A stretch of DNA of 44,845 bases from a virus (taxonomy: Duplodnaviria > Heunggongvirae > Uroviricota > Caudoviricetes). Below, one piece after another: positions 10-44,718 of this stretch. Below the pieces are notes generated by a model. It was not told the DNA's origin, made no database searches, and worked only from the letters and a program-made list of their open reading frames with translations. Position 1 is the stretch's first letter. Each line of letters begins with the position of its first letter. The stretch is taken from the IMG/VR virus record IMGVR_UViG_3300045988_181891, one strand, 5' to 3'. The translations under genes were made by a program, and so were the position numbers.

Positions 10-45
10 AGCCTCAGATTTCGAAAGATTTCTGAGGCTTTTTTT
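10..45 (+). terminator. Rho-independent terminator-like hairpin ending an upstream plus-strand host gene
   Basis: 9-bp stem AGCCTCAGA (10-18) / TCTGAGGCT (31-39), 12-nt loop, followed by a run of 7 T. Confidence 0.4.
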
Positions 46-1212: not shown

Positions 1213-1288
1213 CGCGGCGTGGAGCAGTTGGTAGCTCGCCAGGCTCATAACCTGGAGGTCGCATGTTCGAGTCTTGCCGCCGCAACCA
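1213..1288 (+). tRNA. tRNA-Met: tRNA-Met (anticodon CAT), initiator-type
   Basis: 76-nt cloverleaf folded by hand: acceptor CGCGGCG/CGCCGCA with C1-A72 mismatch, U8, D-loop AGTTGGTA, anticodon loop CTCATAA, T-loop TTCGAGT, encoded CCA; near-identical in layout to E. coli tRNA-fMet. Confidence 0.85.
1270..1286 (+). repeat. attL core, 17-bp direct repeat AGTCTTGCCGCCGCAAC within the tRNA 3' end
   Basis: Identical 17-mer at 44538..44554; imperfect similarity continues for about 55 bp downstream of both copies (atcgggta..aacattct..atccgatt). Confidence 0.8.
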
Positions 1289-1404
1289 ATATCGGGTAAG
1301 AAGTTGGAAACAACATTCTTATCCGATTTTCCGTTTTGGGGAGGGACGGAAGCGAAATACTTTATTGTTGAATATCATTGGCTGGCAACGGACAATGAAA
1401 AAAA

Positions 1405-2632: not shown

Positions 2633-4524
2633 ATCATATAAAAATATCCTGTATAGATAGGCTCAATCTGGTCATCCTTGACCTCCATCTCTATTTTTTC
2701 GCATACGAATTTTTTGTTGTGTATGATGTATGTGTGAGATGGGTCAGGGATGGTATCAGATTGAAATTTTACCTGAAGGCAGTTTTTGTTGTCTATCTTG
2801 AGACCGCTGTCGTGGAGCTCACCCAAACAGGTTCCTGCTTGCCAAGCCTTGTTTAGGGATAGGGAAGCCATCAGAACGGTTGGAAACGTGCCAATATTGC
2901 CAGGATCGAGCAACTCCATCCTATACATGGAATTGATGCGGCTGTCAGTCATGAACTGCGGCCATCTGGACTTCTCCCCTACCCATGAGACGTTGCCATT
3001 GAGTGGGTGTTCGTATTTTTGAACTTTGCCAGGCACTATGAAAAACACATTCATGCACTCCTGGTCATCCTCGGAATCATCCAAGGTGGACTCATCATCG
3101 ATGGCATCCTGTATGGAGACGTAGTTGTAGCCATCCTCGTCTGTGTCGCTCTCTTTGGCTTCGGCTTCTTTGTCGTTTGGCATAGACAGGAGGCAGCGCC
3201 ATTCGCTGTGTTTACCCTCAAAAAGAAAAGACCTAAAGCTAACATTTTCCACGACCTGTGCTGCTGGGGATATGTTGAGGTCTGTGTAATCATCGGAGGA
3301 GTTATCCCTTATCAGTGGCGACCAGACACCAGCCAACTGCCAGCTCTTGTTGCCGTCGGTATCCTCGACATATATATAATAATCGCTGCCCAGATGACGG
3401 ATGATGGTGGTGCGCTTCTTCTTCTCGGACCATCCACTGGTAGTGGCAGGAAACTGAAAGTTGGTACCAACGGCTGTCTCGAACGAATCGACTATATCGA
3501 AATTATCAAAAACTTTTTTGGGAATGACTTCGTAATCACCTCTGTTGGCTGAGTCGCCTAAGTTGTACTGCAGGTTGGCTGTCGATGAGGTTGAGAACGA
3601 ACCATCGGCATCGTAGTCGGTGGTGTACTCGTCGAGTGTCTCTATCTCTACGGAGTCGGCGGATGATAGCTCTGAGGACTTGATGACCTGACAAGTCTTT
3701 TTGATGTCGTCGAAGTATATGGTGGCGTTGAAGAGCTTGCGGAACTCCTCGATGAAGGTGTAGCTAGTCCAATGAGGAAGGGCACGGCGAAGCTCTAGGG
3801 TCTTGAAGGCGGAGGCGATGTAGAGCAAGTTCCATGGAGAAACATCGAGGTCGTTGCGTGTGAGGGTGTAGCCCTCGTAGGCGATGACTCGCTTGAAGAT
3901 GTACATCAGGTTGGGCTGCACGGCGACGTTGCTGATGTATGGATCTTTGCTGCCTATGAAATTGCCCGTGCGGTCAACGCCCACGAAATTGGCTATCATG
4001 TCGTTGGTCTCGTCTCTGACTGGCATGAAGCACCACTTGCCCTGCTCGCCCAGAAACTTGCTCTGGTCGGCGACGAGCCTATAGACGGATTGAACCTTGG
4101 GGATGTTTTTCCAGCCCTGTGAAAAACCTTTATCTACCGTATAGCCTGGTGCGGATGCCTTGCCGAAGTCTATCTCGTCGATGTAGTGCTTGGTCATCTT
4201 GTCGTTGAACTTGATGCGAGACTTGCCGCCCACTATCTGAAGCTTTATCTCAGAGTCGGTGACGCTGATGATGGTACCCACGCCAGAGAGTACCAGGCGA
4301 CCGCTCACGTAAAGCTTGCAATCGTTGTAGGTCTGGGTGGATTTGGAGACATCGAAGCGGCTCACGTTGTGGAAAACTCGGCGGTTGGGCATTATTGCCA
4401 TGGGGAAATTGATGTCGTAGGAGTATTCGCCATCGTCGGTGACGTATTGGTTGGCGTATGTGAGCTTGATGGATTGGCTGGCAGCCGGATAGGCTGCCAT
4501 GCCATTGATGATGCATGTTATCAT
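2626..4524 (-). CDS. Phage tail protein directly downstream of the tape measure gene (candidate distal tail or receptor-binding protein)
   Basis: 632-aa ORF with ATG at 4524, 33 nt after the TMP stop; call by gene order only. Confidence 0.5.
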   Translation of the reverse strand: MITCIINGMAAYPAASQSIKLTYANQYVTDDGEYSYDINFPMAIMPNRRVFHNVSRFDVSKSTQTYNDCKLYVSGRLVLSGVGTIISVTDSEIKLQIVGGKSRIKFNDKMTKHYIDEIDFGKASAPGYTVDKGFSQGWKNIPKVQSVYRLVADQSKFLGEQGKWCFMPVRDETNDMIANFVGVDRTGNFIGSKDPYISNVAVQPNLMYIFKRVIAYEGYTLTRNDLDVSPWNLLYIASAFKTLELRRALPHWTSYTFIEEFRKLFNATIYFDDIKKTCQVIKSSELSSADSVEIETLDEYTTDYDADGSFSTSSTANLQYNLGDSANRGDYEVIPKKVFDNFDIVDSFETAVGTNFQFPATTSGWSEKKKRTTIIRHLGSDYYIYVEDTDGNKSWQLAGVWSPLIRDNSSDDYTDLNISPAAQVVENVSFRSFLFEGKHSEWRCLLSMPNDKEAEAKESDTDEDGYNYVSIQDAIDDESTLDDSEDDQECMNVFFIVPGKVQKYEHPLNGNVSWVGEKSRWPQFMTDSRINSMYRMELLDPGNIGTFPTVLMASLSLNKAWQAGTCLGELHDSGLKIDNKNCLQVKFQSDTIPDPSHTYIIHNKKFVCEKIEMEVKDDQIEPIYTGYFYMMS

Positions 4525-4557: not shown

Positions 4558-7500
4558 TTATTTGTTTGACTTCATTTTTTGATATTGGCTCCATTGGCGG
4601 TCGAAGCCATCGGGGCCGGTGATGACCACGTATGACTTGATGCCAGCGTTGAGCTGCTCGTTGAGTCTGTCGATGGTGGTATGCACGCTATCGAGGGATG
4701 CGCCCATCTGCTCGGTGTCGCCACCTGAGACGTTGACCACTGGGGCGACCACGGCTGCGCTGCCTGTGCCCATGGCACGGCTCACGTCTTGGGCGGTGAG
4801 CGAGGCGACCGTGTTGTTGCGCTGCGCCATATCGATGAGCTGCAGGGCAGGGAGGAGCTGAGGATTGTTGACGGCGTTGTGGTTGGCGACGAACTCGCCA
4901 GCGTGAACCACGCCAGCCTCTTTCTTGTAATTGCCAGGACCAGTGAAACCACCCTCGTAATAGCCAGCCGCCTCTGCCTGGTGCTGCTTTTTGATTGTTG
5001 CTATCTGGAGCATGCCCGCTGCGGTGGCGAGACCTGCGGCGATAGGACCAAGGATGTGACCCACCACTGGGATGGCTGCGGCTGATGAGTAGGCGTTGAT
5101 GGCAGCCATGGCGGTTGAAGCTATGGCTTGTGCGATCTCTATCTTCATCGCCTTTTTGTTGGCCTTGCTCTTGGCTGCAGCCACCTCTTTGTCTCGCTTC
5201 GCCTCGAGACGCTTTTTCTTGGCTGAGTTGTTGCCAGCGGCAGAAATCTGCTTATCGTAGTTTTTCTCAATCTTGGCGACCTCTAGGTCTGAGCATGCCT
5301 GGGAGTAGGCGGAGGCAGCGCCCATCATCGTGTTGATGCTGCTGAAGGCAGCGCCAGCGATGGAGGCTATCTCTTGATAGGTCTCTTTGTTCATCTGCTT
5401 TTTGGCATCCTGGTATTGCTGCTCGCTGATTTTATCCTCGTCTCGAAGATTTTTGAGGTTATCGTTGACCATCTTTTGCTGTTGGATGGCTGCGATGGCA
5501 CCACCAGCGATTGTGGCGAGGTTGTCGCTGCCCATGGCATTGTTGCTGTCACCATTGCCCTTGGTCATCTTTTTGGCGGTGTCGAGGGCGGTGTTGGCAT
5601 CCTCCTTGCGCTGCTCATCGGCGGTTGGCTTGTATGAGGCGTATTTGTTGGCGATGCCCATCTTTGTGCGCTGGTATTCCTCCTCTCTGATGAGACCTGC
5701 CTTGTAGATGGCTTCGAGTCCCTGCAGATCTAGCTGCATCTGCTCTTCGTTGCCGAGCTTGCCGTATTCTTGGCGCAGCTGAAGGAGTTGCTCGTCGTGC
5801 TGCTTCTGAAGGTCGTATTTGCGTTGCTGTTGGGTCAGCTCTCGCTCTTTCTCGATCTGGGCATACTCGTCAGATGAGGAGAGGTAGAGGGCTTGCTTTT
5901 TGTTGAGATAGTCCTGGTATGAGAGGAAGAGAGCCTCGTTGACGGCATCCTCATTGTGATAGAGGTTGGAGTCTTTGTTGTAGTAATCGGCATTGAGCTT
6001 CATTTCTTTTTTCTGTCGCTCGGTCTCCAGGGCTTCGAGGTCGGCGGTCTGCTTTTTCTCGTAGTCGGCGGCGATATTCTCTTTCTCAGCGTTCAATCGC
6101 TTGAACTCTTCGCTCTCTGCCTCGCCATACTTTTTGAGGATGTCGAGGCGAGCCTGAAGCCCCTGTTCTTTGATATTCTTCATCTTCTCGTTGTATTCGG
6201 CGAGTCGAATCTGACCTGTAGCGTAGAGGGTCTTGGCATCGAGCTCTTCGGCTTGGTTGGCTTTCTTTGCATCGTCTAGCTCTTTTTTCATGTCAGCCTT
6301 GCGCTTAGCCTCTGCCTTGCGAGCGGCAGCCTCACGTTTCTTTTTCTCCTTTTCGGCAGCTTTGCGCTCTTTCTCGGTCATGGTATGACCAGAGGAAGGG
6401 GTGGTGTGTGTCTCTGTAGTTGCGCTATTGTTTAGTAAATTCTTCTTTACAGTCTTGTTGTACTGTTTCTGCAAATTTACGTTTTTCTCTAATTGCTGAT
6501 TATAGAAATTCTCTTCAGCATTGACTTGCTTTTGCAGGCTTAGGTTTGCCTGTAGTCTTTGCGTATGAACTTGCTTTTGCTTCTCGTTACTCTTCAGTGC
6601 CTCGTTTTGTTCGATGAGCTGACCTGTCCATCCATCAGCCACGGCATTGCTCTCATATTGCTTAGGATGAGCCTTGCGCTCAGCATCGACAGCCTTCAGC
6701 GAATATCGTATGCGGCTTTCTTTTTGTTTGAGTTCCAGTTTCTTTTTATTGATTTCCACCTTGCGCTCATAGATGGCTTCTGCCATGGCAGCATTTTCTA
6801 GCTCCTTGATGTAGTTTTGGATGGCAATCTGGTTGTCGTTATACAACTTGCCCTCTTTGGAGATAGAGGCGTGATATTCTGGGACGAGCTTTATCATATT
6901 TGCGATAGCTTGCTTTCGCTCGTCAACGGTATAGGCATTGGAGTGGATAACCTTGTTGAGCATATCGACCTTGTTGCGCTCATCGAGGGTAGCATCAGAC
7001 ACCTTTTTGGCGAGGCTGGCTTGAGCCTCTGCCACTGCTCTGTTGTTTTTAGCCTCTTGCGTGTTGTTGCGCATCGCCTCGTTGTAAGATGTTATGGCTT
7101 TGTATGCCCCATAGGCAGCCACGCCCACCACGGTGATGACTGTGGCGAGGGCAGCCCATGGATTGGTGAGACTTGCTAGGCGTGCTGCCCTCATCACCAC
7201 GATGTAGCCCTGTATGCCTTTTGTGAGATAAGCCCATGTGGCTTGCAGTGCCACTAAGGCAGCACGCAAGAGTGTAGATGTAGCGGTATAAGCTTTATCG
7301 ACAGCTGAAGCGTATTGTACGGCGGCTGTTTTAATCTTAATGGCGATGGTCTCCTTGTACCAGAGAGCAGTACAAACAGCGATGGCTGTTGACAGCACGG
7401 CTATTTGTTTTGCATAGGTGACGGTGAAGGTGATGAGCGTGGACATGACCTTTATGGTCAGACTGAATGATGTGATGCCATATTTCATGGCAGGGATGAG

Positions 7501-8904
7501 TTTTTCTCCGAGTTCGATGGTGAGGTCTTGGAATCGCTTCTTGGCTTTGTCTAGTTCTGCCTGTACCGTTGTATTCTGGGTATTGAACTCATTGATGACA
7601 CTGGTACCGTCGGCATACGACTTGGTGGCGATGTCTTGCGCCTCTTTCACTTGGTCGAGGTGTGTAGCCACGGCGGAGAGAACGCCCACGGCACGGGTGC
7701 CGTTAAGCTGCATCTCCTCAAACATCGGTGCCATCTCGGCGAAACCTCCCTTTGACTTCATCGCTTGCATGAACTTCATCAAGCCCTCATTGGCGTTGGT
7801 CTTCATCAGGTTGGAGAACTCCTTGACCTGCATGCCCGCTATCTTGGCGAACTTGGCTGGCTCTTGGTACATCTTGGTGATGAGCTGTGAGAAGACGGTG
7901 GCGGAAGTCGCCTCCTCTTGCATGTTTTGGTCGAGGGCAGAGGCGAGACCCATCAGCTGTGCCTGGGTCATGCCGGCCTGGATGCCGACACCTGAGAGGT
8001 CGGCGGTGAAATCGACGATGTAGCCAGCGTTTGCAGATGAGCTTTGTGCCAGCTCATTGACGGCGGAACCTGTGGCGAGCATCGCACCACGAAGGCCTTT
8101 GGTCTTATCCTCACCAAACATCTGGGCGAGCTTGCCGATTTTATCGACCGCCCCCTTGCCGAGGTCATCGCCGAGGGTGACATTGATTTTGTCGGCACCA
8201 TCAACGAACTCCTCGATCATCTCTTTGCTGGTGATGCCGAGGCGACCGGCAGAGCCAGCCAGCTCGTTGAGCTGCTCACGAGCTGTGCGGGTATCCATGC
8301 GCTTGAAGTCCTCGTTCATCTGATGAACCTGTTCGTCGGTCTGACCGGTGTATTTGCGCACGTCTGCCATCGACTCCTCCATGTCGGCATAGGCTTGGGC
8401 TGCAGCTCTCAAAGTAAGAGTGAGTGTGGTGAGACTGCCCAGTATCTGGGTGAAGGCACCCCAGTTTTTGTTAAGACCATCCCACATTCTAGAGAACAAA
8501 CTTCTGGAAGCTTTACCTTCGTCGTTGATGTGCTGCATCTCTGCTCGCACTTGCTTTAATTGCTTTTGCAGTTTTTTCCATTCGTCTGAGTTGCGCTTGA
8601 TGGCACCGCTTTTCAACTCTCTGTTGAGAGCCTTGGCGACTAGTTGCAGCTCCTTGTATGATGCAGAAGAAAGATTGTTGAGAACTTGGTTAACCTTCTC
8701 TTGGCTAGTCATGTATGCTTTTGTCTCAGCCTTTAATCTCTTTATCTGTCGTTCGAGGGCTGTTGTTGACTCGCCCTTTGCATAAGCCTCGTCTCTGGCT
8801 TTTTGCACTTCTTTCAGCTTGTTTTGCAATTCGTTGAGTTTATCCTTAGCCTCTTTGGTGTCAAGAATAACTCTGCTAACATGGGTATCTGTATTTGTTG
8901 CCAT
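4558..8904 (-). CDS. Tail tape measure protein
   Basis: 1448 aa; N-terminal TMP-type domain (NELAGSAGRLGITSKEMIEEF...), central hydrophobic helices, long charged coiled-coil regions; own promoter box upstream. Confidence 0.9.
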   Translation of the reverse strand: MATNTDTHVSRVILDTKEAKDKLNELQNKLKEVQKARDEAYAKGESTTALERQIKRLKAETKAYMTSQEKVNQVLNNLSSASYKELQLVAKALNRELKSGAIKRNSDEWKKLQKQLKQVRAEMQHINDEGKASRSLFSRMWDGLNKNWGAFTQILGSLTTLTLTLRAAAQAYADMEESMADVRKYTGQTDEQVHQMNEDFKRMDTRTAREQLNELAGSAGRLGITSKEMIEEFVDGADKINVTLGDDLGKGAVDKIGKLAQMFGEDKTKGLRGAMLATGSAVNELAQSSSANAGYIVDFTADLSGVGIQAGMTQAQLMGLASALDQNMQEEATSATVFSQLITKMYQEPAKFAKIAGMQVKEFSNLMKTNANEGLMKFMQAMKSKGGFAEMAPMFEEMQLNGTRAVGVLSAVATHLDQVKEAQDIATKSYADGTSVINEFNTQNTTVQAELDKAKKRFQDLTIELGEKLIPAMKYGITSFSLTIKVMSTLITFTVTYAKQIAVLSTAIAVCTALWYKETIAIKIKTAAVQYASAVDKAYTATSTLLRAALVALQATWAYLTKGIQGYIVVMRAARLASLTNPWAALATVITVVGVAAYGAYKAITSYNEAMRNNTQEAKNNRAVAEAQASLAKKVSDATLDERNKVDMLNKVIHSNAYTVDERKQAIANMIKLVPEYHASISKEGKLYNDNQIAIQNYIKELENAAMAEAIYERKVEINKKKLELKQKESRIRYSLKAVDAERKAHPKQYESNAVADGWTGQLIEQNEALKSNEKQKQVHTQRLQANLSLQKQVNAEENFYNQQLEKNVNLQKQYNKTVKKNLLNNSATTETHTTPSSGHTMTEKERKAAEKEKKKREAAARKAEAKRKADMKKELDDAKKANQAEELDAKTLYATGQIRLAEYNEKMKNIKEQGLQARLDILKKYGEAESEEFKRLNAEKENIAADYEKKQTADLEALETERQKKEMKLNADYYNKDSNLYHNEDAVNEALFLSYQDYLNKKQALYLSSSDEYAQIEKERELTQQQRKYDLQKQHDEQLLQLRQEYGKLGNEEQMQLDLQGLEAIYKAGLIREEEYQRTKMGIANKYASYKPTADEQRKEDANTALDTAKKMTKGNGDSNNAMGSDNLATIAGGAIAAIQQQKMVNDNLKNLRDEDKISEQQYQDAKKQMNKETYQEIASIAGAAFSSINTMMGAASAYSQACSDLEVAKIEKNYDKQISAAGNNSAKKKRLEAKRDKEVAAAKSKANKKAMKIEIAQAIASTAMAAINAYSSAAAIPVVGHILGPIAAGLATAAGMLQIATIKKQHQAEAAGYYEGGFTGPGNYKKEAGVVHAGEFVANHNAVNNPQLLPALQLIDMAQRNNTVASLTAQDVSRAMGTGSAAVVAPVVNVSGGDTEQMGASLDSVHTTIDRLNEQLNAGIKSYVVITGPDGFDRQWSQYQKMKSNK

Positions 8905-8926
8905 AATTGAATATTTTATTTTATGG

Positions 8927-8934
8927 CAAAGGTA
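8927..8934 (-). promoter_or_regulatory. -7 promoter box TAccTTTG (minus strand) for the TMP gene
   Basis: Plus strand reads caaaggta; about 23 nt upstream of the ATG at 8904. Confidence 0.45.
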
Positions 8935-8950
8935 ATAAGGAGGAAAACAT

Positions 8951-8991
8951 AATAAAAATACGAGACCGTATGTATTGCGGTCTCGTATTTA
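8951..8991 (-). terminator. Rho-independent terminator (minus strand)
   Basis: Perfect 13-bp inverted repeat AAATACGAGACCG / CGGTCTCGTATTT with 9-nt loop, followed on the minus strand by TTTTTATT. Confidence 0.6.
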
Positions 8992-10092: not shown

Positions 10093-10704
10093 TTATTTCA
10101 CCACCTCTATGTATCTCGAGTAATCAATCTTGGAGTGGGGATTGTGGCTGACTATCTGCACCTGATAGCCCTTGGTGCCCCATCGCCACCAGAGGAACTT
10201 GTGGCGGTAGGTGCGGCTCACGATGGTCGTCAGGCTGTCTCGAGACGAGTACTGGCACTCTCGCTTGGGGATGTCGATATGGAGGGAGAGCCATTGGTCT
10301 CGGTAGGTGTAGATGGAATCGGGGATGCCGGAACCAGCCACGGCGGCGGTCGGTTCGGGCGTGAGATAGACCGTATCGGCGGTGGTTGACGAAACTGTGT
10401 GGATAGACTGCACATCTTTGAGCCGCACTTTGAGGTCTTTGATGAGCTTGGTATCGGCGAGGTGGAGCTTTTGCAGCTCGTCGTATTTCGACTGAAGGGC
10501 GTTGAATATGGCGACATTGAGAGTGTCTCTCACGTTGGCATATTCAATGTCGTAGTTGAGGTTGGCTACGTTGTAGCTCTGTCGGTCGAGGTCTGCCTGA
10601 AGCTGCTCGCACTTGTTGGCGGAGTGTATGAATGCGACTGCGGTCACGATGAGCAGGGCTGCCAGAAGCTGGATGATAATCTTGGGTGTAATCTTTTTTG
10701 TCAT
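10093..10704 (-). CDS. Membrane-anchored coiled-coil protein, spanin-like lysis accessory candidate
   Basis: ATG at 10704 (MTKKITPKIIIQLLAALLIVTAVAF...); N-terminal TM helix then coiled coil; directly follows the amidase gene. Confidence 0.45.
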   Translation of the reverse strand: MTKKITPKIIIQLLAALLIVTAVAFIHSANKCEQLQADLDRQSYNVANLNYDIEYANVRDTLNVAIFNALQSKYDELQKLHLADTKLIKDLKVRLKDVQSIHTVSSTTADTVYLTPEPTAAVAGSGIPDSIYTYRDQWLSLHIDIPKRECQYSSRDSLTTIVSRTYRHKFLWWRWGTKGYQVQIVSHNPHSKIDYSRYIEVVK

Positions 10705-10733
10705 TGTCTTTTTGAAAATGATTGGTGAGTGAG

Positions 10734-11159
10734 TTATGCGATGTCTTTGTATTCGTCGATGGCATTGAAGCAAGGACACATCTTCTTCCATTTGGACTTG
10801 TCCTTGCCCCAGATGTCACGATGGCCCATTATCTGGGCATCTGGGAATTGTTGCTTCAGTTTGTGGAGTAGCAAAACGAGGGCGTCTTTTTGCTCTGGTG
10901 TGCGGTTGTCGATAGCCTTGCCCTTAGCGTCGATGCCACCGATATAGGCGACGTTGATGGCTGTGGAGTTGTAGCCCTGCACGCCGTTGCTCACCTTTTC
11001 GATGGCTAGGAGTTGGTGGATGCCGCCGTTTGGGGCGATGACGTAGTGATAACCTGGATTGGTCCAGCCCTTGCGGCGGAACTCTGCCTTGAGGTCGTCG
11101 ATGGACTGGCTTTGCGACCCTGCGGTGCAGTGAACGAAAATGCGTTTAATCTGTCTCAT
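10734..11159 (-). CDS. N-acetylmuramoyl-L-alanine amidase endolysin (Amidase_2/PGRP, T7-lysozyme-like)
   Basis: Zn-ligand pattern H (IFVHCTAG), H (MGHRDI), C (CPCF) plus GYHYVI and NVAYIGG motifs; internal ATG at 11159. Confidence 0.85.
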   Translation of the reverse strand: MRQIKRIFVHCTAGSQSQSIDDLKAEFRRKGWTNPGYHYVIAPNGGIHQLLAIEKVSNGVQGYNSTAINVAYIGGIDAKGKAIDNRTPEQKDALVLLLHKLKQQFPDAQIMGHRDIWGKDKSKWKKMCPCFNAIDEYKDIA

Positions 11160-11400
11160 TATTTTGCTTGTTATGATTGAACAATTTGTTTTTGATGTTG
11201 TCGAACTTGGCATCGATGGCGATGGCTACGCCGAAGATGGAGCCGGCATACATGAGCGACTGGGCAAAGTACCAGAGCACATTGTCGGTGACATCACGAG
11301 CCTGGGAGGTGAAGTAACTGATGTAAACCAGTATGATGGCGAGGAGGAGCACGGCGATGGCTGAGCCGTATTGTATCCATTCTTTAGTATTTCTCTGCAT
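11146..11400 (-). CDS. Holin-like small membrane protein
   Basis: 84 aa from ATG at 11400 with two hydrophobic helices; immediately upstream of and overlapping the amidase gene; ORF-track start 11430 is TTG. Confidence 0.55.
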   Translation of the reverse strand: MQRNTKEWIQYGSAIAVLLLAIILVYISYFTSQARDVTDNVLWYFAQSLMYAGSIFGVAIAIDAKFDNIKNKLFNHNKQNNETD

Positions 11401-11427
11401 GGTGAATCTTGTTTTTGTTTTACAGTG

Positions 11428-11435
11428 CAAAGATA
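11428..11435 (-). promoter_or_regulatory. -7 promoter box TAtcTTTG (minus strand) for the lysis cassette
   Basis: Plus strand reads caaagata; about 25 nt upstream of the holin ATG. Confidence 0.45.
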
Positions 11436-11449
11436 AGAAGGGTAGGGTG

Positions 11450-11487
11450 ATAATAAAAATACGAGACCGCCCTAACGATCTCGTATT
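11450..11487 (-). terminator. Rho-independent terminator (minus strand)
   Basis: 9-bp stem AATACGAGA / TCTCGTATT with 12-nt loop, followed on the minus strand by TTTTTATTAT. Confidence 0.5.
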
Positions 11488-11914: not shown

Positions 11915-13558
11915 TCACGTGAATTTATAGAACTTCTTTTTGAATTTATTGTGAAGCTCTGCGACCACGGTGGAGAAGGGTAGCTCATCACGACAGAAGT
12001 CGTTGAGGGCTTGGTCTATCAAGATCTTGGAGCCTGTATAGAGGTAGTGCTCCAGAGGTTGCCATACCTCGGTGCCGTCTGGCTCCAGGTGGTCGATGAT
12101 GCGATAGCGTAGGGAGAGGCGCTTCTTGGGCACCTCTTTGGTGACCATGTGGGTGGAGCCGTCCGGGGCGGTCTCCTCTTGCTGGATGGTCTCCTTCTCT
12201 ATCACCGAGTCATCGACCTTGTAGTCTATCACTTGAACGAGGAACTTGTTCTCGTCCTGACCCTCACGGCAGATGATGTCCTCGATGGACTGCTGCTGTG
12301 ATTTCTCCATACCGTCAAAAGGCACGCGCGCACGGCGAGCCTTGACGAGTTTACCGAATCTTTCCATACCGATTTTCTTATATAAGTTTTTAGAGTTTGC
12401 GTGGATGCCCAGACCTAGGCGAGAGGCTGCCTTGAGCTGTATCTGGCGGTCTGTGAAGCCCGCCTTGCGTAAGTTGGCGATCTGTCTGCAGAGGTCGTGC
12501 TTGAACCGCTTGCGCAACAGGGCGTGGTCGGCGTAGATGATCTGACCGCATAAGTCGATGCCATCGCAGGTGCGGTGGATACCCCAAGACTTATTGATGG
12601 ATAGGTGCCAGTCACGGGCGAGGTGCATCACGGCAAGCTCTGCCATCAGCCTGAGGAACACCTTATCCTCGTGGAGGATGTAGATGTTGTCCATGAAGCG
12701 GTAATAATGGCGAAGACCTTGGCGGCAGAAGCGCTCGAACCTATCGTTGAGCGACTTCACTCCCCCGCATAGCAGTTGAGCTTGCTGCTGAGTGCGACAG
12801 GTAACGAGCATGTCGCTCACGTAGCGAGCCTGCCAGTAACGGAACTTGTCGGTGTCTTGGAGAATGTCGAAGCATCGGAGTGCCAGGTAATCGAAGCGGG
12901 CGAGGAAGAGCTGACCCAAGAGTTGGGCGAGCTTGACGCCGAGCACGATGCCTGGATTGAAGCTATCGACCACCTCGTCGATGAAGGCGAGGAGCTTGCG
13001 GTCTTTGATCTTGCGGCGATATTCACTTTTGAGAAGAGCGTGGTCTATGCTCTGAAAATAATGGTGAATATCCATGGGCAAGCAGTAGAAGGTATCTTGC
13101 TGTGGCGAGTTGAAGATGTCTCGCTTGACAAGATTATAGAAATAATGGGTGCCCTTGCCCTTGGAACCAGCCGGACTGTGGCTGTAGAGTGTCTTGCGAA
13201 GGTTATCCTCTACAGGTTGCAGGGCAGCGTGCTGGATGACGTGGTCGATAACGGGCAGCTTGTTGACTTGGCGATGTTTTGGATAGTCGATATCTTTGGC
13301 GACATAGGCTGAGGTATGCCAAGTTTGTTGGGTGTAAGCATCGAGCATGCGTCCGATGTTATGGTCTAGGTTTGCCTCGAATTTTTGGACCGCACGGCGA
13401 GACATCTTTTGTCGGGCGTAGTCATAGAATGCCCGACGAAAGTTGTCTAGTGTCTCGACCTGTAGCGATATGTTGCCAAACCTTTTCATAAGCGGTGTAA
13501 TGTCTGTGTTGAACGGTGTATAAACTGTGTATAGTCTGAATCGTCTGCTTTTGTACAC
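11915..13558 (-). CDS. DGR reverse transcriptase-like protein with non-canonical motif C
   Basis: RT motifs recognised by eye: HVIQHAALQPV, SPAGSKGKGTHY, LPMDIHHYFQSIDH, GVKLAQLLGQLFL; sits just downstream of the template repeat; ORF-track start 13558 is GTG, first in-frame ATG is at 13489. Confidence 0.8.
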   Translation of the reverse strand: MYKSRRFRLYTVYTPFNTDITPLMKRFGNISLQVETLDNFRRAFYDYARQKMSRRAVQKFEANLDHNIGRMLDAYTQQTWHTSAYVAKDIDYPKHRQVNKLPVIDHVIQHAALQPVEDNLRKTLYSHSPAGSKGKGTHYFYNLVKRDIFNSPQQDTFYCLPMDIHHYFQSIDHALLKSEYRRKIKDRKLLAFIDEVVDSFNPGIVLGVKLAQLLGQLFLARFDYLALRCFDILQDTDKFRYWQARYVSDMLVTCRTQQQAQLLCGGVKSLNDRFERFCRQGLRHYYRFMDNIYILHEDKVFLRLMAELAVMHLARDWHLSINKSWGIHRTCDGIDLCGQIIYADHALLRKRFKHDLCRQIANLRKAGFTDRQIQLKAASRLGLGIHANSKNLYKKIGMERFGKLVKARRARVPFDGMEKSQQQSIEDIICREGQDENKFLVQVIDYKVDDSVIEKETIQQEETAPDGSTHMVTKEVPKKRLSLRYRIIDHLEPDGTEVWQPLEHYLYTGSKILIDQALNDFCRDELPFSTVVAELHNKFKKKFYKFT

Positions 13559-13697
13559 TTGATAACCTTCGACCGGATGACCGTGTTGTCATCATCTACC
13601 AGCTGTCTTATTAATGTGTATGTATCGCCATGGGGCGAGGATTGACCCTGTAATCTCGAAGTGGGAGCAAACGACCCACGAAGAGATATGTCTGTAA

Positions 13698-13819
13698 GTT
13701 GAGGGCGGCGCCGTAGTTCACATTGGCATTCGAGACAGCATTGTTCACGTTGAGCGTTGAAAGACCGCATTGACCACCATTGTTAGCGTTAGCACCACGA
13801 AGGCAGACACGAAAACCGG
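13698..13819 (-). repeat. DGR template repeat (TR), non-coding
   Basis: 122 bp matching 14109..14230 with 10 mismatches, all at TR adenines (plus-strand T); the ORF 13611..13832 is a translation of the TR, not a gene. Confidence 0.9.
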
Positions 13820-13853
13820 CACCTAGGGTCACACCCTGGTATCATAACCGCCG

Positions 13854-13861
13854 CAAAGGTA
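13854..13861 (-). promoter_or_regulatory. -7 promoter box TAccTTTG (minus strand) directly upstream of the TR
   Basis: Plus strand reads caaaggta, about 35 nt upstream of the TR. Confidence 0.45.
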
Positions 13862-14057
13862 ATAAAAATAATCGGTATGGAAGCATGTCAAAGAGCTTTT
13901 TTGATGTTTTTATTGATATTTTTTTTGTCGCCGACCGCCACAGGCGGTAACTTAAGGCGAGCTACGCTCGCTGGGTGCTTCGGCTTCGCCGAGGGTGCTC
14001 AGGTCTCTTTTGCACACCCAGTAAACCGATGCACACCCAGCAAACTGATGTAGTCTC

Positions 14058-15530
14058 TTAGGCCGCCTCGTAATACACGGGTTCAACGGACCACTCGGAT
14101 GCTGCTTCGCAGAGGGCGGCGCCGTAGTTCACATCGGCAATCGAGACAGCACTGCTCACGTCGAGCGTTGAAAGACCGCATCGACCACCAAGGTTAGCGT
14201 TAGCACCACGAAGGCAGACACGAAAACCGGATGTAGCACCAGACGTATTCCAGAAATAGCTAGTCCAGTAGGTTGACTCGGATGCGCCCGTAGCGGTCGG
14301 GAAGTTCTCTAGATGCTCCATCGAGAGCGTCTTGATATAGCCTTCGCCCTTGGTCGGCGAGGTGCTGTAAGCCACCATGCCATCGGTGGAACCTATCGTC
14401 CACGTGCCGTAGATGGACGGTGCCACGAGATGGGTCACGGAAGTGTCCTCGTTGCAACGCACCTGCTCGTCATCCATGTGTCGCCACAATAAGCCGAAGC
14501 CATTTTTGTAGCCGAAGAAGGATGGTATCTTGGCGGTATAGACCACGGTGCCATCGTCTTTTTTGACCTCGTAGCTCGCCTCGCCGCAAGCGTCGCCAAG
14601 CTCGATGCCAGCCGACATCGGCACGACAGGGCGATAGCCGTTGTAACCACCCCAATCAGGCATCTGTGTCACGCCAGCGCCGAGACCACCCTGGTAGAGA
14701 CCGTTGGCATCTTTTTGGCTGTTGACGGCATCCTGGTCGTAGTGGGTGCCGAAGATGACCCCGAAGAGCACGGAGATGGCAGAGGTGTGGCGCATGGTGG
14801 TGCAGAGCCAGCCTGTGCCGTTTTTGCGGGCAGCAGCACGCCAGTATTCGGTAGTCTGGTTGGTGGCAGCCTTGCCCAGCATGGTGCGGTTGGTGTTATC
14901 TAACGTGGAGTCGTTGTTGCCGCCTCGGTAGTTTGTGCCCTCGTTGATGTAGCTCACCAGCTTGCCTGTGCTGCGCTCTAGCGTGGCGAAGCCAGCGGCG
15001 GAGATGCTGCCCACAGGTATCTTGTAATTGTACTCGCCTGGTATCGGCGTAGGGCTGACCATCTCGTAATGGAGTCTGCCCACGGTCTTGATGACCATGT
15101 ACCACTCCTTGCCCCAGCCCCACTGGTAGTGCCCCTCTGAGCCATCGAGCTTGGCTGTCTCGCCGGTGGCATACTTGTGGTGGTCTTTGGAGTCGAGCTT
15201 GCGACGGGAGTGGTCATTCTTGACCAGATAACAGCCCAGACCCAGCTCCGTTGGTAGGGTCTGCAGTAACTCTAGCGAGCCCACATAAGTGGCGGCTTTA
15301 GGGGTTGCATTGTCGAGGTTCCACACTCGACCACACCAAGGATGCTGTCCCATTTGGACGGCGCTTTTGAGCGACATCTGCTCAGACCTGCCGGATTTTT
15401 TGTCGAAGACCTCGACAATCTTGTCAGTGGCGCTCATGTCTGACTGTGGGAGGTCGTCAACCTGTTGACCTCCATCGAAAGCGGCTATGATAGCCTTGAG
15501 CTTACTCTCTTCTTCTGATGTTAATGCCAT
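14058..15530 (-). CDS. DGR target protein, putative receptor-binding structural protein with C-terminal variable region
   Basis: 490 aa from ATG at 15530 (ORF-track start 15578 is TTG); VR occupies the C-terminus; GFRVCLRG segment resembles the C-type-lectin/FGE-like fold of known DGR targets. Confidence 0.8.
   Translation of the reverse strand: MALTSEEESKLKAIIAAFDGGQQVDDLPQSDMSATDKIVEVFDKKSGRSEQMSLKSAVQMGQHPWCGRVWNLDNATPKAATYVGSLELLQTLPTELGLGCYLVKNDHSRRKLDSKDHHKYATGETAKLDGSEGHYQWGWGKEWYMVIKTVGRLHYEMVSPTPIPGEYNYKIPVGSISAAGFATLERSTGKLVSYINEGTNYRGGNNDSTLDNTNRTMLGKAATNQTTEYWRAAARKNGTGWLCTTMRHTSAISVLFGVIFGTHYDQDAVNSQKDANGLYQGGLGAGVTQMPDWGGYNGYRPVVPMSAGIELGDACGEASYEVKKDDGTVVYTAKIPSFFGYKNGFGLLWRHMDDEQVRCNEDTSVTHLVAPSIYGTWTIGSTDGMVAYSTSPTKGEGYIKTLSMEHLENFPTATGASESTYWTSYFWNTSGATSGFRVCLRGANANLGGRCGLSTLDVSSAVSIADVNYGAALCEAASEWSVEPVYYEAA
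14109..14230 (-). repeat. DGR variable repeat (VR) inside the 3' end of the target gene
   Basis: 122-bp copy of the TR; encodes ...GFRVCLRGANANLGGRCGLSTLDVSSAVSIADVNYGAAL..., ending 17 codons before the stop at 14058. Confidence 0.9.
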
Positions 15531-15552
15531 AATAAAAATTATATTTAATCGA

Positions 15553-16317
15553 TTAAACAATGCGTAATTTATCACCAACTTTTCTAAGCTTGCCCGATGC
15601 CGACAGGCGAAGGCGAGGCTGGCGCACGGTGATGCTGACCTCTTGCCAGAGCGGTGTGTTGGCGGTGGGGATGACCCAGAACTTGGTGGTGCCCTCGCCC
15701 TTGATGATGAGGTTGCCGCTTGGGTCTGCCACGAGCGAGTCGCCCTCGGCTCGCTGGAAGAGCACGCTCTGAGGGAGGTAGCTCGGCAGGATCTGCACGG
15801 CGATGCGCAGAGCCACCTTGTTGCGTAGGCTTATCTCGGGGAGATAGGTCAGGTTCATGCGAGCTGGCGCGATGAAGCCTGTGGTTATCTGAGCGGCGAG
15901 ACCATCCATCTGCGCTATCTTGGCATCGGCTCGCTTGGATGCCGCGTCAGCCTCTGCAGCCTTGGTCTCTGCCAAGGCTGCCTGTGATGCTGCAGCCTCG
16001 CCCTGCTCGCCAGCCGCCTTGGCTGCGCTCTGGGCGAGGTTAGCCGCCTTGTTGGCATCGTCGGCCGCACCCTGCGCTCTGACGGTCGGTGTCTTGTCGA
16101 GCCACAAGCGCCACTTGGCGTTGGTATCTGAAGGAGTCGTCGTGTTGCCATCCTCTAGGGAGGCGAAGACTCCTGACGATGTGTGAACGATGTCGCCCTC
16201 GTCGTAGCCCTTGACGGTCTGGCCATCCTCATCTTGATAGGAGTAGCCCGACTGCCAGGTGCCCTGGTCGGTGAAGGCGACATTGCCCACGATAATGATG
16301 TTTGTGTTATCTGCCAT
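15553..16317 (-). CDS. Hypothetical structural protein with Ala-rich coiled region
   Basis: ATG at 16317; 254 aa. Confidence 0.55.
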   Translation of the reverse strand: MADNTNIIIVGNVAFTDQGTWQSGYSYQDEDGQTVKGYDEGDIVHTSSGVFASLEDGNTTTPSDTNAKWRLWLDKTPTVRAQGAADDANKAANLAQSAAKAAGEQGEAAASQAALAETKAAEADAASKRADAKIAQMDGLAAQITTGFIAPARMNLTYLPEISLRNKVALRIAVQILPSYLPQSVLFQRAEGDSLVADPSGNLIIKGEGTTKFWVIPTANTPLWQEVSITVRQPRLRLSASGKLRKVGDKLRIV

Positions 16318-21269: not shown

Positions 21270-21285
21270 ATTTTTTATTTTGATG

Positions 21286-21293
21286 CAAAGATA
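21286..21293 (-). promoter_or_regulatory. -7 promoter box TAtcTTTG (minus strand) for the fibre-like gene
   Basis: Plus strand reads caaagata, 17 nt upstream of the ATG. Confidence 0.45.
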
Positions 21294-21321
21294 GGTATGA
21301 TGAGAACTATATAAAAATACG

Positions 21322-26625: not shown

Positions 26626-26648
26626 ATCAATGTCTCATTAAAACGATG

Positions 26649-26656
26649 CAAAGATA
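26649..26656 (-). promoter_or_regulatory. -7 promoter box TAtcTTTG (minus strand)
   Basis: Plus strand reads caaagata, about 24 nt upstream of the ATG at 26625. Confidence 0.45.
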
Positions 26657-26667
26657 GGAAGGAAGGG

Positions 26668-26710
26668 GAGAAAATAAAAATACCTGATTGTCATCACGAC
26701 AACCAGGTAT
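26668..26710 (-). terminator. Rho-independent terminator (minus strand)
   Basis: 12-bp stem ATACCTGATTGT / ACAACCAGGTAT (one mismatch), 7-nt loop, followed on the minus strand by TTTTTATTTTCTCC. Confidence 0.45.
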
Positions 26711-31629: not shown

Positions 31630-33231
31630 CTATAGCATGGAACCCGTGGCGATGTAGCCATCAGCCTGAGGGTATTTCTCCATGCCAATCATGAGCGTGT
31701 CGTAGGCATCGGAGCCATCGGTGCGAGCCTCCAACTTATCCTCCTCGGTCTCAGCCAGCTTCTCGCCTCGCTTATCCTTCTTGCCGTTGTAGACCCCGGC
31801 CAGGCGGATGGAGATGAGCAGGTCTTCGTTGTTCTCGCTGTTGATCATCGAGCGATGCTCAGCCTTGCCGAGGAACATGCGGTTGAGCAGAAGCATCTTT
31901 TCGAGATGTCCCATCGGGTTGCCCAGATAGACCTCGTTGACATACCAGCCATGGTCGGTGAGGTAGTCGGTGATGAAGGTATGGAAGTCATCGTTCATCA
32001 GGGCGTAGTTGTTGCCCACGAAGGTGGAGTCGTAGTAGAAGTTGACCTCTTTGCACCGATGGTACTCATAGTACTGCATGAACTTGTCGAGCAGGGCTGG
32101 CAGCTTCTCCTCATACTTCACGAAGATGCTCTTGAGGCAGCGTGCCTCGCCCCGCAGGTTGTCTTGTCCGACGGCTATCCAGTTGATGAGGGCGTTGGCA
32201 TCGAAGGCGATGCAGAGCGGACGGTCGGGGTCAACGTCGGCATCCATTCTGGAATCTACATGCTTGAGCTTGTCGATGTCGTAGCCCAAGCCATCGAGGT
32301 AGGCGAGGTTGGGCGCCGTGTATAGGTTGGCATCCCTGAGGTTGGAGTAGAAGCCATCGAGCGAGATGGAAGGTCGCTTGCACATGATGGAGGTCTGGAA
32401 GGTGAGGGCAGGGAGGTCTCGCTTCATCTGCTTGATGAACTCCATGCCGAGCACCTCGATGTTATAGACCGATGAGTACTCTTTATAGAAGAGTGCCTTG
32501 GAGCGCAGTTGCGCCAGGAGCTGACCAATCTCTCGGAGTCGGCGCTGGGCATAGCCTGAGACATGGCCCGAGGTCTTGATGCGGTTGCGTATGTCATACT
32601 CCTCTACCACGAGCGAGGCGATGGCGTCGATGAGCAGCTGGTCGCAGTCTTTCTTGTAGTTGAGGAACCAGGAGCCCTTCTTGGTCACGGGCATATCAGA
32701 GGTGATGAGCATGCCATGGTGGTAGTAGTGCTGGCCGAAGAGGTTGACGTTGCCTCGATTGGCAGGGAAGGTCTCGTCTTTGAGCTGTTCGAAGTTGATG
32801 AACTTCGCCTCGTCGATGTCGAGGTAGTCGAGCGAGAGGGAGTTGGAGGTACCCTTGCGGTCTTGCGAGATGATGGTACCGATGGAGCCGTTATAGAAAG
32901 AGATGGTGTTCTCCCAGTTGCTGGGCGGTATGACCGGGTCGGGCCATCCCAGTTTTTTGGGAGGCTTGACCCCGATGAGATAATGCTTGCCCCGGTGGAA
33001 GCCCCATCGCTCCCAGTGCTGAAGCATCGACGGTATGGTGTTGGTGAGGCATCGCTTGGTGTTGGCGGATACGAAGCCGCCGTTGCTGCCAGGCATGCGC
33101 TGCATGTTGCGCAGGTTGAAGGTGGCGTGGAGAATGCTCTTGCCGATGCCTCGACCGCCCACGACCACGTTGTCGCGGGCGGAGATGAGGTTGACCTCCA
33201 TCTGGGCTGGGTTGAGATATTGATCTATCAT
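31630..33231 (-). CDS. Terminase large subunit
   Basis: Walker A VVGGRGIGKS, Walker B-like LDYLDIDEA, C-terminal acidic nuclease-type region; start/stop overlap with the upstream small gene. Confidence 0.8.
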   Translation of the reverse strand: MIDQYLNPAQMEVNLISARDNVVVGGRGIGKSILHATFNLRNMQRMPGSNGGFVSANTKRCLTNTIPSMLQHWERWGFHRGKHYLIGVKPPKKLGWPDPVIPPSNWENTISFYNGSIGTIISQDRKGTSNSLSLDYLDIDEAKFINFEQLKDETFPANRGNVNLFGQHYYHHGMLITSDMPVTKKGSWFLNYKKDCDQLLIDAIASLVVEEYDIRNRIKTSGHVSGYAQRRLREIGQLLAQLRSKALFYKEYSSVYNIEVLGMEFIKQMKRDLPALTFQTSIMCKRPSISLDGFYSNLRDANLYTAPNLAYLDGLGYDIDKLKHVDSRMDADVDPDRPLCIAFDANALINWIAVGQDNLRGEARCLKSIFVKYEEKLPALLDKFMQYYEYHRCKEVNFYYDSTFVGNNYALMNDDFHTFITDYLTDHGWYVNEVYLGNPMGHLEKMLLLNRMFLGKAEHRSMINSENNEDLLISIRLAGVYNGKKDKRGEKLAETEEDKLEARTDGSDAYDTLMIGMEKYPQADGYIATGSML

Positions 33232-37194: not shown

Positions 37195-38220
37195 TTATGC
37201 AAACTGATTTAAAACATCCAACACTTGATCTGAGCAGAAATCCTCGACCTTGGTGTCATCGACAGCAGTGTGCGTGTCGCCACCAGGCTCTCCCTCCAGA
37301 TCCTTCACTTTATCCTTCAGGTCATCTCTCTCCTTTTCGAGATTCTTGACCTTAGTCTCTAACTCCTTCTTCTCGTCCTTGACCTTCTGAAGCTCTGTGT
37401 CTTTGTCGGTCACGGCCTTGGAGTCGGCAGCGATCTTATCCTCCAGTTTCTGCATCTGCTCCTGTGAGATTGTGCAGTTCTTTGCGGAATCTTCTGCCTC
37501 AATGCCCTCGATATTGAGGACATTGTTGATGTGAGTCCATTTTTTGATCATATTAATAATTTTATTTTGTGATTTATCTTTGCCGAATAATCGGTCGATG
37601 ATGCTTGGCTTTTTATCATACCAGGAGTTAACAACCTCTGGGAGAACAGGAAGGTTGTTGTACTTGATGAAGTCTTGCGTCTGCTCGGTGATGTCGGCAG
37701 GCTTGCCATCCATGGCTTCATCGACGAGACCCAGTTCGATGCACTCATCGACGGTGTGCCACATCGCTTCGGACATCACCTTGACGATGTCCTCGTGCTT
37801 CTTGCCCGAGCGATCGCAGTAAACGTTGGCGATGATGTTGTCGATTTTCTGCTGGTTCTCTTGCTGTTTTTGAAGTTGCTCGATGAGCGAGCCTATCTGC
37901 TCCTCGTTGAGCGCAGACCACACAAACTGCTCGGTAGAGCACTTGTGTACCAGGAGCAAGCTATATTTGCTCATGCGAATCTTGCTGGCACCCATCGCAC
38001 AGATGGTGGCAGCAGAGGCAGAGAAGCCCGCCTGGAAGTCAACGGTCACGTCGCCATGGGACTTGAACATCTGACAGATGGCGAGACCTGCGGAGACCTC
38101 GCCACCCAAGGAGTCGATGGCAACATCGACGTGCTTATCTTTGTTGGCCTTAAGAACATCGCGAACCATGAGCTTGGTCCACGAGCCAATATATCCTGTG
38201 ATAGAAATTTGGTACTTCAT
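37195..38220 (-). CDS. ClpP-family prohead protease with C-terminal coiled-coil (scaffold-like) extension
   Basis: ClpP signature IDSLGGEVSAGLAI and GFSASAATICAMGASKIRMSKYSLLLVHK; C-terminal about 100 aa is K/E-rich coiled coil. Confidence 0.8.
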   Translation of the reverse strand: MKYQISITGYIGSWTKLMVRDVLKANKDKHVDVAIDSLGGEVSAGLAICQMFKSHGDVTVDFQAGFSASAATICAMGASKIRMSKYSLLLVHKCSTEQFVWSALNEEQIGSLIEQLQKQQENQQKIDNIIANVYCDRSGKKHEDIVKVMSEAMWHTVDECIELGLVDEAMDGKPADITEQTQDFIKYNNLPVLPEVVNSWYDKKPSIIDRLFGKDKSQNKIINMIKKWTHINNVLNIEGIEAEDSAKNCTISQEQMQKLEDKIAADSKAVTDKDTELQKVKDEKKELETKVKNLEKERDDLKDKVKDLEGEPGGDTHTAVDDTKVEDFCSDQVLDVLNQFA

Positions 38221-43073: not shown

Positions 43074-43100
43074 AATTCTTTTCCATTGTAAATTTTCTTG

Positions 43101-43108
43101 CAAAATTA
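43101..43108 (-). promoter_or_regulatory. -7 promoter box TAatTTTG (minus strand) for the primase gene
   Basis: Plus strand reads caaaatta, about 28 nt upstream of the ATG. Confidence 0.35.
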
Positions 43109-43241
43109 TTGCAAAGCGAGTTCAAAACAAAATACTTATTTTTTGTCGCATAGAGCCTTTGGCTCATACTCGACGTATCTGTGGAGAGGGTGGCAGTATC
43201 TGCCATTGATGCAGTTGCTGCCATCCTCGCACTTTTGGCAT

Positions 43242-43553
43242 TTAATCGGTGGCATCGACTTTTATATCAAAAGTGTCGTTGTGTAGCAACATCTTGGTAT
43301 GAACATAAATTGGTTTTTGTTCATCCTCATCCCATCCAACCTCTCGGAAGTCTCTGCCATCGATATAGCATTCGGTGGCGTATCCTTTGTCGGTCCACTC
43401 TACGATATGGTCTTTGTCGAACTCGTCTCTTGCTGGCACTGTAGCCAGAACACGAGTGCCAAACTTGCTGTAGCTAATCTCGTGTATAGTGACGTTAGGG
43501 TATTTCTCGATGATTGCCTCCTCGATAGATTTTGTCTTAGTCTTCTTTTTCAT
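43242..43553 (-). CDS. Hypothetical early protein
   Basis: ATG at 43553; 103 aa. Confidence 0.5.
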   Translation of the reverse strand: MKKKTKTKSIEEAIIEKYPNVTIHEISYSKFGTRVLATVPARDEFDKDHIVEWTDKGYATECYIDGRDFREVGWDEDEQKPIYVHTKMLLHNDTFDIKVDATD

Positions 43554-43743
43554 TGTTCTTCATTCTGAATTTAACAATACCTGCCACGATGCCGTCTTCT
43601 TGGTCATCGTAGAACATATTTAAATCTGTTGTGCCCTTATGGAGTGTACCATAGGACACGTCAACGGCAACGCTGGCATCCTCGAAATCTTTGAGGATGG
43701 CTTGAAGCTGTTTGCTGTTGCATCTGACTGTCATTTTTCCCAT
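43537..43743 (-). CDS. Hypothetical small early protein
   Basis: ATG at 43743; 68 aa. Confidence 0.45.
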   Translation of the reverse strand: MGKMTVRCNSKQLQAILKDFEDASVAVDVSYGTLHKGTTDLNMFYDDQEDGIVAGIVKFRMKNNEKED

Positions 43744-43949
43744 GATCCATCATTGATAATTTGCTCGATGACCTCTCTGTCGATGGCACGCCAAGTATTG
43801 GTGCGCATCTTATTGTAGATGGTGTTCTGGCTCATCTCTAGCTTTAGCTGCAGTGTGGCCATGAACTTGCTTCTCTTTTTGCGTGGTATCTCATTATACC
43901 ATGCGAGGATGATATTTTCATCATCATTTTTTTTGTTTTTTTCTTGCAT
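43731..43949 (-). CDS. Small basic protein, Cro/excisionase-like candidate (first gene of the minus-strand early operon)
   Basis: ATG at 43949, 22 nt downstream of the promoter box; divergent from the repressor gene; possible HTH segment LQLKLEMSQNTIYNKMR. Confidence 0.45.
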   Translation of the reverse strand: MQEKNKKNDDENIILAWYNEIPRKKRSKFMATLQLKLEMSQNTIYNKMRTNTWRAIDREVIEQIINDGSWEK

Positions 43950-43977
43950 ATTCCAATATTTATTATTAATTTTGTTG

Positions 43978-43985
43978 CAAAGTTA
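43978..43985 (-). promoter_or_regulatory. -7 promoter box TAacTTTG (minus strand) for the early operon
   Basis: Plus strand reads caaagtta. Confidence 0.45.
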
Positions 43986-44070
43986 GTAATAAAAATCGGA
44001 AAATACTAACGAAAGTAAGTAAAAACACCTATGATAATAGGTTAAATATTATTAATTAAATTAGGTAATT

Positions 44071-44448: not shown

Positions 44449-44537
44449 TACGAAACATAATTCGTAAGATGAATCCTTATATATAATAAGGTGTATAAAA
44501 TATATCGTATAATCTCAGCAGTGATATCCAACTCGTT

Positions 44538-44554
44538 AGTCTTGCCGCCGCAAC
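44538..44554 (+). repeat. attR core, 17-bp direct repeat AGTCTTGCCGCCGCAAC (displaced tRNA 3' remnant lacking CCA)
   Basis: Identical to 1270..1286; downstream about 55 bp resemble the sequence after the tRNA at the left end. Confidence 0.8.
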
Positions 44555-44718
44555 AATGCAAATCGGGTAGAAAGTTGTAATTCAACATTCTATCCGATTC
44601 TTTTTTTATCCCTATATTTATAATTTAACACTAAATATTTGCATATATCGAATAAAACTACTAATTTTGCACACAGATATTTTTATGTGCAATCATTTTA
44701 ATTAGGAGGGGCTTCAAT

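Follow-up and report, generated by a model that had tools for sequence, protein, structure and literature searches.

A temperate Segatella copri phage at the 3′ end of the initiator tRNA-Met gene, and the hairpin it shares with its host

The stretch of DNA analysed here – hereafter the window, 44,845 nt from the IMG/VR virus record IMGVR_UViG_3300045988_181891 – very probably carries a temperate tailed phage of Segatella copri that was integrated at the 3′ end of an initiator tRNA-Met gene by its own tyrosine integrase, a reading to which we assign a probability of about nine in ten. A preliminary description, drawn from the letters of the window, had proposed a prophage in this gene, and the proposal is borne out by the phage genes between two repeats, by ten empty chromosomal sites, by an intact tRNA gene and by the joined attachment site of a related phage.

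The boundaries of the element are fixed by the two copies of a short core. The 17-mer AGTCTTGCCGCCGCAAC occurs exactly twice in the window, both times on the + strand and at the places previously claimed: at 1270–1286, where it forms positions 58–74 of the tRNA (attL), and at 44538–44554 (attR). Within the window there are no further copies with up to 2 mismatches, and 100 dinucleotide-preserving shuffles yielded 0. As had also been noted, the right copy lacks both a tRNA body in front of it and an encoded CCA, reading ...GCAAC followed by AA. With one of the core copies included, the element measures 43,268 bp; its body (1287–44537), recognised as phage by matches to PHROGs and by composition, has a G+C content of ~50%, compared with 37–42% in the flanks.

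The flanks themselves are host chromosome. On the left lies a gene for a 146-aa SLT-domain transglycosylase (527–967, + strand; Pfam SLT), and on the right the start of a gene for a TetR-family regulator (44720–44845, + strand), which matches the related locus L001 from position 10925 onward. An exact-sequence lookup of the SLT protein returned the identical protein at ten phage-free loci (two in NCBI genomes, eight on metagenome contigs), and these served as the sample of empty sites. Gene order is the same in all ten – SLT, tRNA-Met, TetR, adh_short, pseudouridine synthase, TamB – with no phage genes at any of them and a single core copy at each; the uninfected relative with one repeat that the preliminary description had envisaged is thus found ten times over, with SLT, tRNA-Met and TetR together. 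At every one of these loci, what comes straight after the tRNA body is the DNA found beyond the attR core in the window (...GCAAC, then C or A, then ATGCAAATCGGGTAGAAAGTTG...). The TetR_N protein of the empty sites is 198 aa long and starts 483 nt after the SLT stop codon; in L001 this gap occupies 10442–10924, and the corresponding host DNA of the window amounts to 319 nt (968–1286) plus 165 nt (44555–44719). Without the element, and with one core copy retained, the window therefore matches the L001 gap within 1 nt, the spacing that removal of the phage predicts. Phage gene content running on across 1270 or 44554 without the repeat would be the opposite of what the relatives display.

Some features of the surrounding chromosome deserve mention. 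In the complete genomes L001 (5986–6202) and L002 (6016–6189), tRNA-Ile and tRNA-Ala genes lie ~4.5 kb upstream of the site. The pairing suggests the spacer of an rRNA operon, so that attB may be situated just after such an operon, and a hairpin with a T-run at window positions 10–45 may be the terminator of that operon. Upstream of the SLT gene there are also two repeat arrays: some ten 8-mers in tandem, each fitting TTTTACYY, at 175–261, and four copies of a unit containing CACGC(N)GATT at 36–123.

The tRNA gene is intact. The only tRNA that ARAGORN detects anywhere in the window is a tRNA-Met(CAT) at 1213–1288 on the + strand, which Rfam scores as a tRNA at 60 bits. Its assignment to the initiator type, already made in the preliminary description, is upheld by the C1 x A72 mismatch (a non-canonical 1:72 pair in Rfam), by A11:U24 and by the anticodon-stem pairs G30:C40 and G31:C39; G:C thus accounts for two of the three anticodon-stem pairs, the pair 29:41 being A:U, a partial departure from the E. 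coli pattern. Elsewhere in the molecule, the T-stem pair 52:62 is pyrimidine–pyrimidine (U.U in the window, U.C or C.C in sister alleles), and position 6 is variable (C, T, rarely G or A) opposite a fixed G67 across the window, L001–L010 and L090–L125.

As it stands in the window, the gene is a composite: positions 1–57 come from the host, positions 58–74 make up the att core and the final two bases, CA, are contributed by the phage. The core takes in the last three bases of the T-loop, the 3′ strands of the T and acceptor stems, the discriminator A73 and C74. Since attL reads ...GCAAC followed by CA, the rebuilt gene encodes CCA, and the earlier statement that the left copy completes an intact gene is right as far as the tRNA goes. 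The encoded CCA is another matter: it is present at five of the ten empty sites (the other five have CAA), and most related prophages carry CTA or CAA at attL. Encoded in only half of these otherwise nearly identical strains and absent from most relatives of the phage, CCA is not conserved in these bacteria, and its supply by the phage here is incidental. When CCA ends are compared, identity between att sites always stops at C74.

The recombinase is encoded next door. The integrase gene (1405–2568, + strand) specifies a 387-aa tyrosine integrase with a PHROG integrase match at 5.6e-31 and Pfam matches, both above their cut-offs, to PF00589 (Phage_integrase, 45 bits) and PF02899 (SAM-like domain, 33 bits); an R...K...R...H...Y pattern was read in it by eye only, and no relatives in the PDB are detectable by sequence. 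Its ATG at 1405 lies 116 nt past the end of the tRNA (1288), in the same orientation as the tRNA gene – the adjacency noted before is real, although the spacing had been put at 117 nt.

Recombinases of the lambda-Int family exchange strands within an overlap of 6–8 bp, producing attL with the structure B-O-P′ and attR with the structure P-O-B′. Here the exchange very probably took place inside the 17-bp segment, tRNA positions 58–74, that phage attP and host attB have in common. The resulting attL consists of the 5′ part of the host tRNA, the core and the phage P′ arm, and attR of the phage P arm, the core and host downstream DNA. With attL built in this way, the tRNA gene stays intact. The attP of the window's phage would accordingly be expected to read ...CCAACTCGTT-AGTCTTGCCGCCGCAAC-CAATATCGGG. 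The only polymorphic position in the core, position 5 (tRNA position 62, T or C), follows the host allele; as it is alike in attL and attR wherever both ends are seen, it does not locate the crossover.

Judged by its gene content, the element between the repeats is a tailed-phage genome. Matches to PHROGs identify, all on the – strand, a tape measure protein (4558–8904), an amidase endolysin (10734–11213), a tail protein (14058–15578), the large terminase TerL (31630–33231) and a head maturation protease (37195–38220), together with a reverse transcriptase (11915–13558, – strand; PHROG RT, 2.1e-52). The last phage gene before attR (44071–44448, + strand) encodes a 125-aa Cro/CI-type HTH protein that matches Pfam HTH_26 and a PHROG transcriptional repressor. 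Divergent from it, the list of open reading frames contains a 72-aa ORF (43731–43949, – strand) with a homologue at the equivalent place in the related contig L048; the arrangement makes it a candidate for a putative Cro- or excisionase-like switch partner, and profile scans of the prophage gave no match to an Xis-type family.

Two further features of the phage genome were observed. One is a complete diversity-generating retroelement (DGR) on the – strand at 11915–15578, comprising – besides the reverse transcriptase – the DGR RNA (Rfam RT-17, 13541–13642, – strand) and a 119-nt pair of repeats, with the template repeat TR at 13701–13819 (– strand) and the variable repeat VR at 14112–14230 (– strand) in the C-terminus of the tail protein; the differences between TR and VR fall at TR adenines in eight of eight cases. 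The other is a conserved intergenic motif of ~39 nt that stands ahead of phage operons at 8923–8961, 11424–11462, 21282–21320 and 26645–26683. On the minus strand it reads GTATTTTTAT...TMTCTTTGCATC and contains the Bacteroidetes-type –7 element TAnnTTTG, and it is probably a promoter shared by these operons.

The integrase also leads to the relatives of the phage. Integrases 86–100% identical to that of the window are found on 42 viral contigs. A core copy lies upstream of the integrase gene in 39 of these, the remaining three having too little upstream sequence to judge. What leads into the core is the same tRNA body in 37 of the 39; in L017 and L048 it is phage DNA, not tRNA. On the 40,998-nt contig that bears both L048 and L073, the junction is found midway along, in the order right end, core, hairpin, integrase gene. 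Its right-end side is homologous to window positions 41914–44491, which take in the HTH gene along with the small divergently transcribed ORFs, and its integrase end to positions 1270–2578 at 81% identity, with ~81% at both ends; the two sides are joined through AGTCCTGCCGCCGCAAC, after which come the hairpin and the integrase gene. This junction has the arrangement of an attP and carries a mimic of the tRNA 3′ end, so that a structure which had been deduced for the phage is seen directly in a relative of ~81% nucleotide identity. The L048 junction would look no different in a collapsed tandem double lysogen, and the conclusion about its sequence would be unchanged. Exact and degenerate searches of the viral contigs for the attP or circular form of the window's own phage returned nothing.

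The same junction weighs on a quite different account of the repeat, namely that the 17 bp are a target-site duplication of the kind left by a transposase, or else a chance match or duplicated tRNA fragment with no connection to mobility. A single copy at empty sites would be expected under target-site duplication too. Yet the core belongs to the joined ends of a relative's own genome, all tRNA-linked relatives sit at the same site, the recombinase belongs to the tyrosine integrases, a scan of 40 ORFs gave no match to a transposase family and no chance matches to the core are expected. With the core present in a relative's attP, the transposition reading was rejected, and we consider it extremely improbable; site-specific integration at the tRNA remains the account followed below.

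Several side observations concern these relatives. Their modules are mosaic: in IMGVR_UViG_3300045988_178699 (L013, L082) the integrase is 100% identical to that of the window and the right-end HTH regulator only 64%. The right end of the window's phage is also found beside the host arm of a sister clade (L059). The junction in L055/L059, a single contig recovered by a search with the right-end pattern, was first read as a tandem or hybrid site. The simpler reading is an attR in a sister host with a native hairpin equal to a phage arm, although the contig stops too soon for a decision. Another contig, L057 (CAVCRI010000337.1), is binned as ‘Lachnospiraceae bacterium’ and bears a Segatella-type tRNA-fMet and an 87% identical integrase at the same site; most likely it is a mis-binned Segatella contig. 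Among deposited phages, a megablast search with half the prophage found only two unannotated faecal contigs labelled ‘Bacteriophage sp.’, whose matches cover ~10%, at 76–78% identity, and a look through the literature found no description of this phage, its att site or the putative terminator copy discussed below.

Beyond the core, the two ends of the element share a second, less conspicuous feature. The preliminary description had reported ~70 nt of imperfect homology flanking the core. The homology is real, but it extends over ~50 nt and is confined to the 3′ side. Past the core in that direction, 39 of 54 aligned columns agree, with a score of 20 against –7.5 ± 4.0 (maximum 7) in 2000 shuffles; upstream, in the comparison of the tRNA body with the phage P arm, similarity is at chance level (–11 against –11 ± 3.3). 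The diverged blocks singled out earlier (atcgggta, gaagttg, aacattct and atccgatt) prove to be the two arms of one hairpin. The phage-borne copy in the P′ arm, at attL, occupies 1291–1327 on the + strand (–20.7 kcal/mol, z –5.2) and is followed by TTTTCCGTTTT, an interrupted T-run; the host copy in the B′ arm, at attR, lies on the + strand at 44561–44609 with its T-run (hairpin 44561–44599; –19.8 kcal/mol, z –6.7) and is followed by TTCTTTTTTT. The copies at the empty sites and in the L048 attP fold equally well, the whole set ranging from –19.6 to –20.7 kcal/mol with z between –5 and –8. The host version stands directly after the tRNA at all ten empty sites, and the phage version, placed between the tRNA and the integrase gene, is kept in 40 related prophages.

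What such a hairpin might be is suggested by the other hosts. In 32 right ends of related prophages, the sequences after the core include several that are unrelated to one another, each a perfect stem with a T-run directly after the tRNA. A simple terminator scan calls these position-equivalent elements of other hosts and does not call either hairpin of the window, because both window stems have an internal mismatch or bulge. As a terminator stands directly 3′ of this tRNA in every host, we infer that the attR hairpin is the native terminator of the host tRNA gene, displaced by 43 kb through the insertion.

The origin of the phage copy can be followed into a sister clade. In the right ends L080–L083 and L088 the core is followed by AATGATCGGGTAAGAAGTTGGTCAACAACATCTTATCCGATTTT, more Ts and host-like DNA, and a pattern consisting of the tRNA body, a hairpin of the AATGATCGGGTAAGAAGTTGGTCAACAACATCTTATCCGATTTT type and a T-run recurs on 36 metagenome contigs. 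All 36 have TetR downstream (~94% identical) and 32 have SLT (~82%), the rest being cut short; none carries an integrase gene. These contigs are empty sites of a sister Segatella clade. Over 44 nt the native hairpin of this clade does not differ from the P′ arm of related prophages such as L020 and L030, and the identity between attP and attB thereby reaches 61 bp, compared with 17 bp in the window's host, where the chromosomal hairpin has diverged and identity consequently ends after the core. On this alignment, the phage arm is homologous to what is putatively a Segatella tRNA-fMet terminator, beyond a mere likeness of shape. The hairpin may have moved between host and phage in either direction, both being compatible with the data.

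Could the shared segment simply be functionless – a leftover of attP capture through imprecise excision, or of recombination between the arms of attL and attR, decaying neutrally since? Its distribution, with 61 bp of identity to one host clade and diverged copies elsewhere, is the pattern expected of a captured segment. The manner in which it varies is harder to square with neutral decay. Across 17 distinct host and phage versions of the hairpin the stem is retained and most other variation falls in the loop, and at two neighbouring stem pairs the host and phage versions are set apart by compensatory changes, which amount to a single host-versus-phage event. The homology, moreover, reaches precisely as far as the hairpin and the first Ts, and no further. 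On balance, a purely passive remnant strikes us as unlikely.

Alternatively, the hairpin could serve recombination rather than transcription, as a site for the arm domain of the integrase or for a host bending factor that is needed for synapsis. It adjoins the core in both attP and attB and is kept in all related phages, and the reconstructed attP contains further short inverted repeats around the core: an 11-mer pair, TGATATCCAAC and GTTGAATATCA (44522–44532 and 1367–1377), flanks it, and an inverted pair CCGTTTT/AACGG (1329–1337 and 1387–1392) lies between the hairpin and the start of the integrase gene, with a similar arrangement in L048 at 2909–3003. These pairs, both short, are candidates for arm-type sites or for structures regulating the integrase gene. 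The difficulty with a role in synapsis is that relatives of the phage sit in hosts with unrelated post-core sequence and different hairpins; as such hosts are occupied all the same, attB does not need the hairpin. That the unrelated elements are all stem-and-T-run terminators suggests, in addition, that the transcriptional role belongs to the position rather than to the sequence. A recombination element at this place therefore seems distinctly improbable.

Of these readings we favour the transcriptional one, in which the hairpin would act as an intrinsic terminator of the tRNA transcript. The phage copy would then give the rebuilt tRNA gene a proper 3′ end and, at the same time, would shield the co-oriented integrase gene, 116 nt downstream, from read-through of the tRNA promoter. 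Taken further, this leads to a tentative proposal that may well turn out otherwise: that the phage keeps in its attP a selected copy of the tRNA-fMet terminator as an insulator of the integrase gene against the strong tRNA promoter, stabilising lysogeny; that recombination needs only the 17 bp, invariant in the initiator tRNA throughout the Segatella copri complex, which would let one integrase module cross species; and that the 61 bp of one clade set against the 17 bp of the other might be read as a natural titration of the requirement for att homology.

Whatever the role of the hairpin, the analysis establishes where a complete, DGR-bearing temperate phage of Segatella copri begins and ends; this gut species is abundant, but few phages are known from it. 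The sequences of attB, attP, attL and attR can be used for detecting lysogeny and excision in metagenomes, and also for integration vectors in Segatella, which is hard to engineer. Furthermore, as the target of the integrase family is 17 bp of an essential, highly conserved tRNA in several host clades, a comparison of clades shows what part of the att identity can be dispensed with.

Integration into the 3′ ends of tRNA genes, with a copy in attP that restores the gene, is textbook behaviour for temperate phages; examples among phages and islands with lambda-Int-family tyrosine integrases include P4 at leuX, P22 at thrW, HP1 at tRNA-Leu and mycobacteriophage L5 at tRNA-Gly. Williams is said to have distinguished, in 2002, sublocation classes of tRNA-gene integration. 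The phage of the window resembles these examples in having its integrase gene beside attL, in rebuilding the tRNA gene with a 3′ copy carried in attP, in being bounded by direct repeats, and in an identity that begins in a tRNA loop and runs toward the 3′ end – in HP1-type cases also past the end of the tRNA. Unlike them, it targets the initiator tRNA of a Bacteroidota host; its identity runs from T-loop position 58 and, in this host, no further than C74; it carries a copy of the downstream terminator hairpin, with a clade-dependent extent of identity (61 bp elsewhere, 17 bp here); and no relative of its integrase is detectable by sequence in the PDB.

As for kindred phages, the Bacteroides ‘Hankyphage’ is a DGR-bearing temperate phage of gut Bacteroidales, and the present phage is likewise a temperate tailed phage of ~43 kb from a gut Bacteroidales host, with a DGR that targets a tail protein. 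With half the prophage as query, only fragmentary DNA matches to deposited phages appear at the megablast level. Its close kin are uncultivated viral genomes in IMG/VR, among them IMGVR_UViG_3300045988_187506, _178699 and _116473, which have integrases 86–100% identical to that of the window and share the tRNA site, the core and the hairpin arm; one of these relatives shows the attP form, and all are unannotated predictions with mosaic modules. Set against these known systems, the mechanism is an ordinary one, to which the phage makes two modest additions: a copy of the putative terminator and a length of att identity, 61 or 17 bp, that depends on the host clade.
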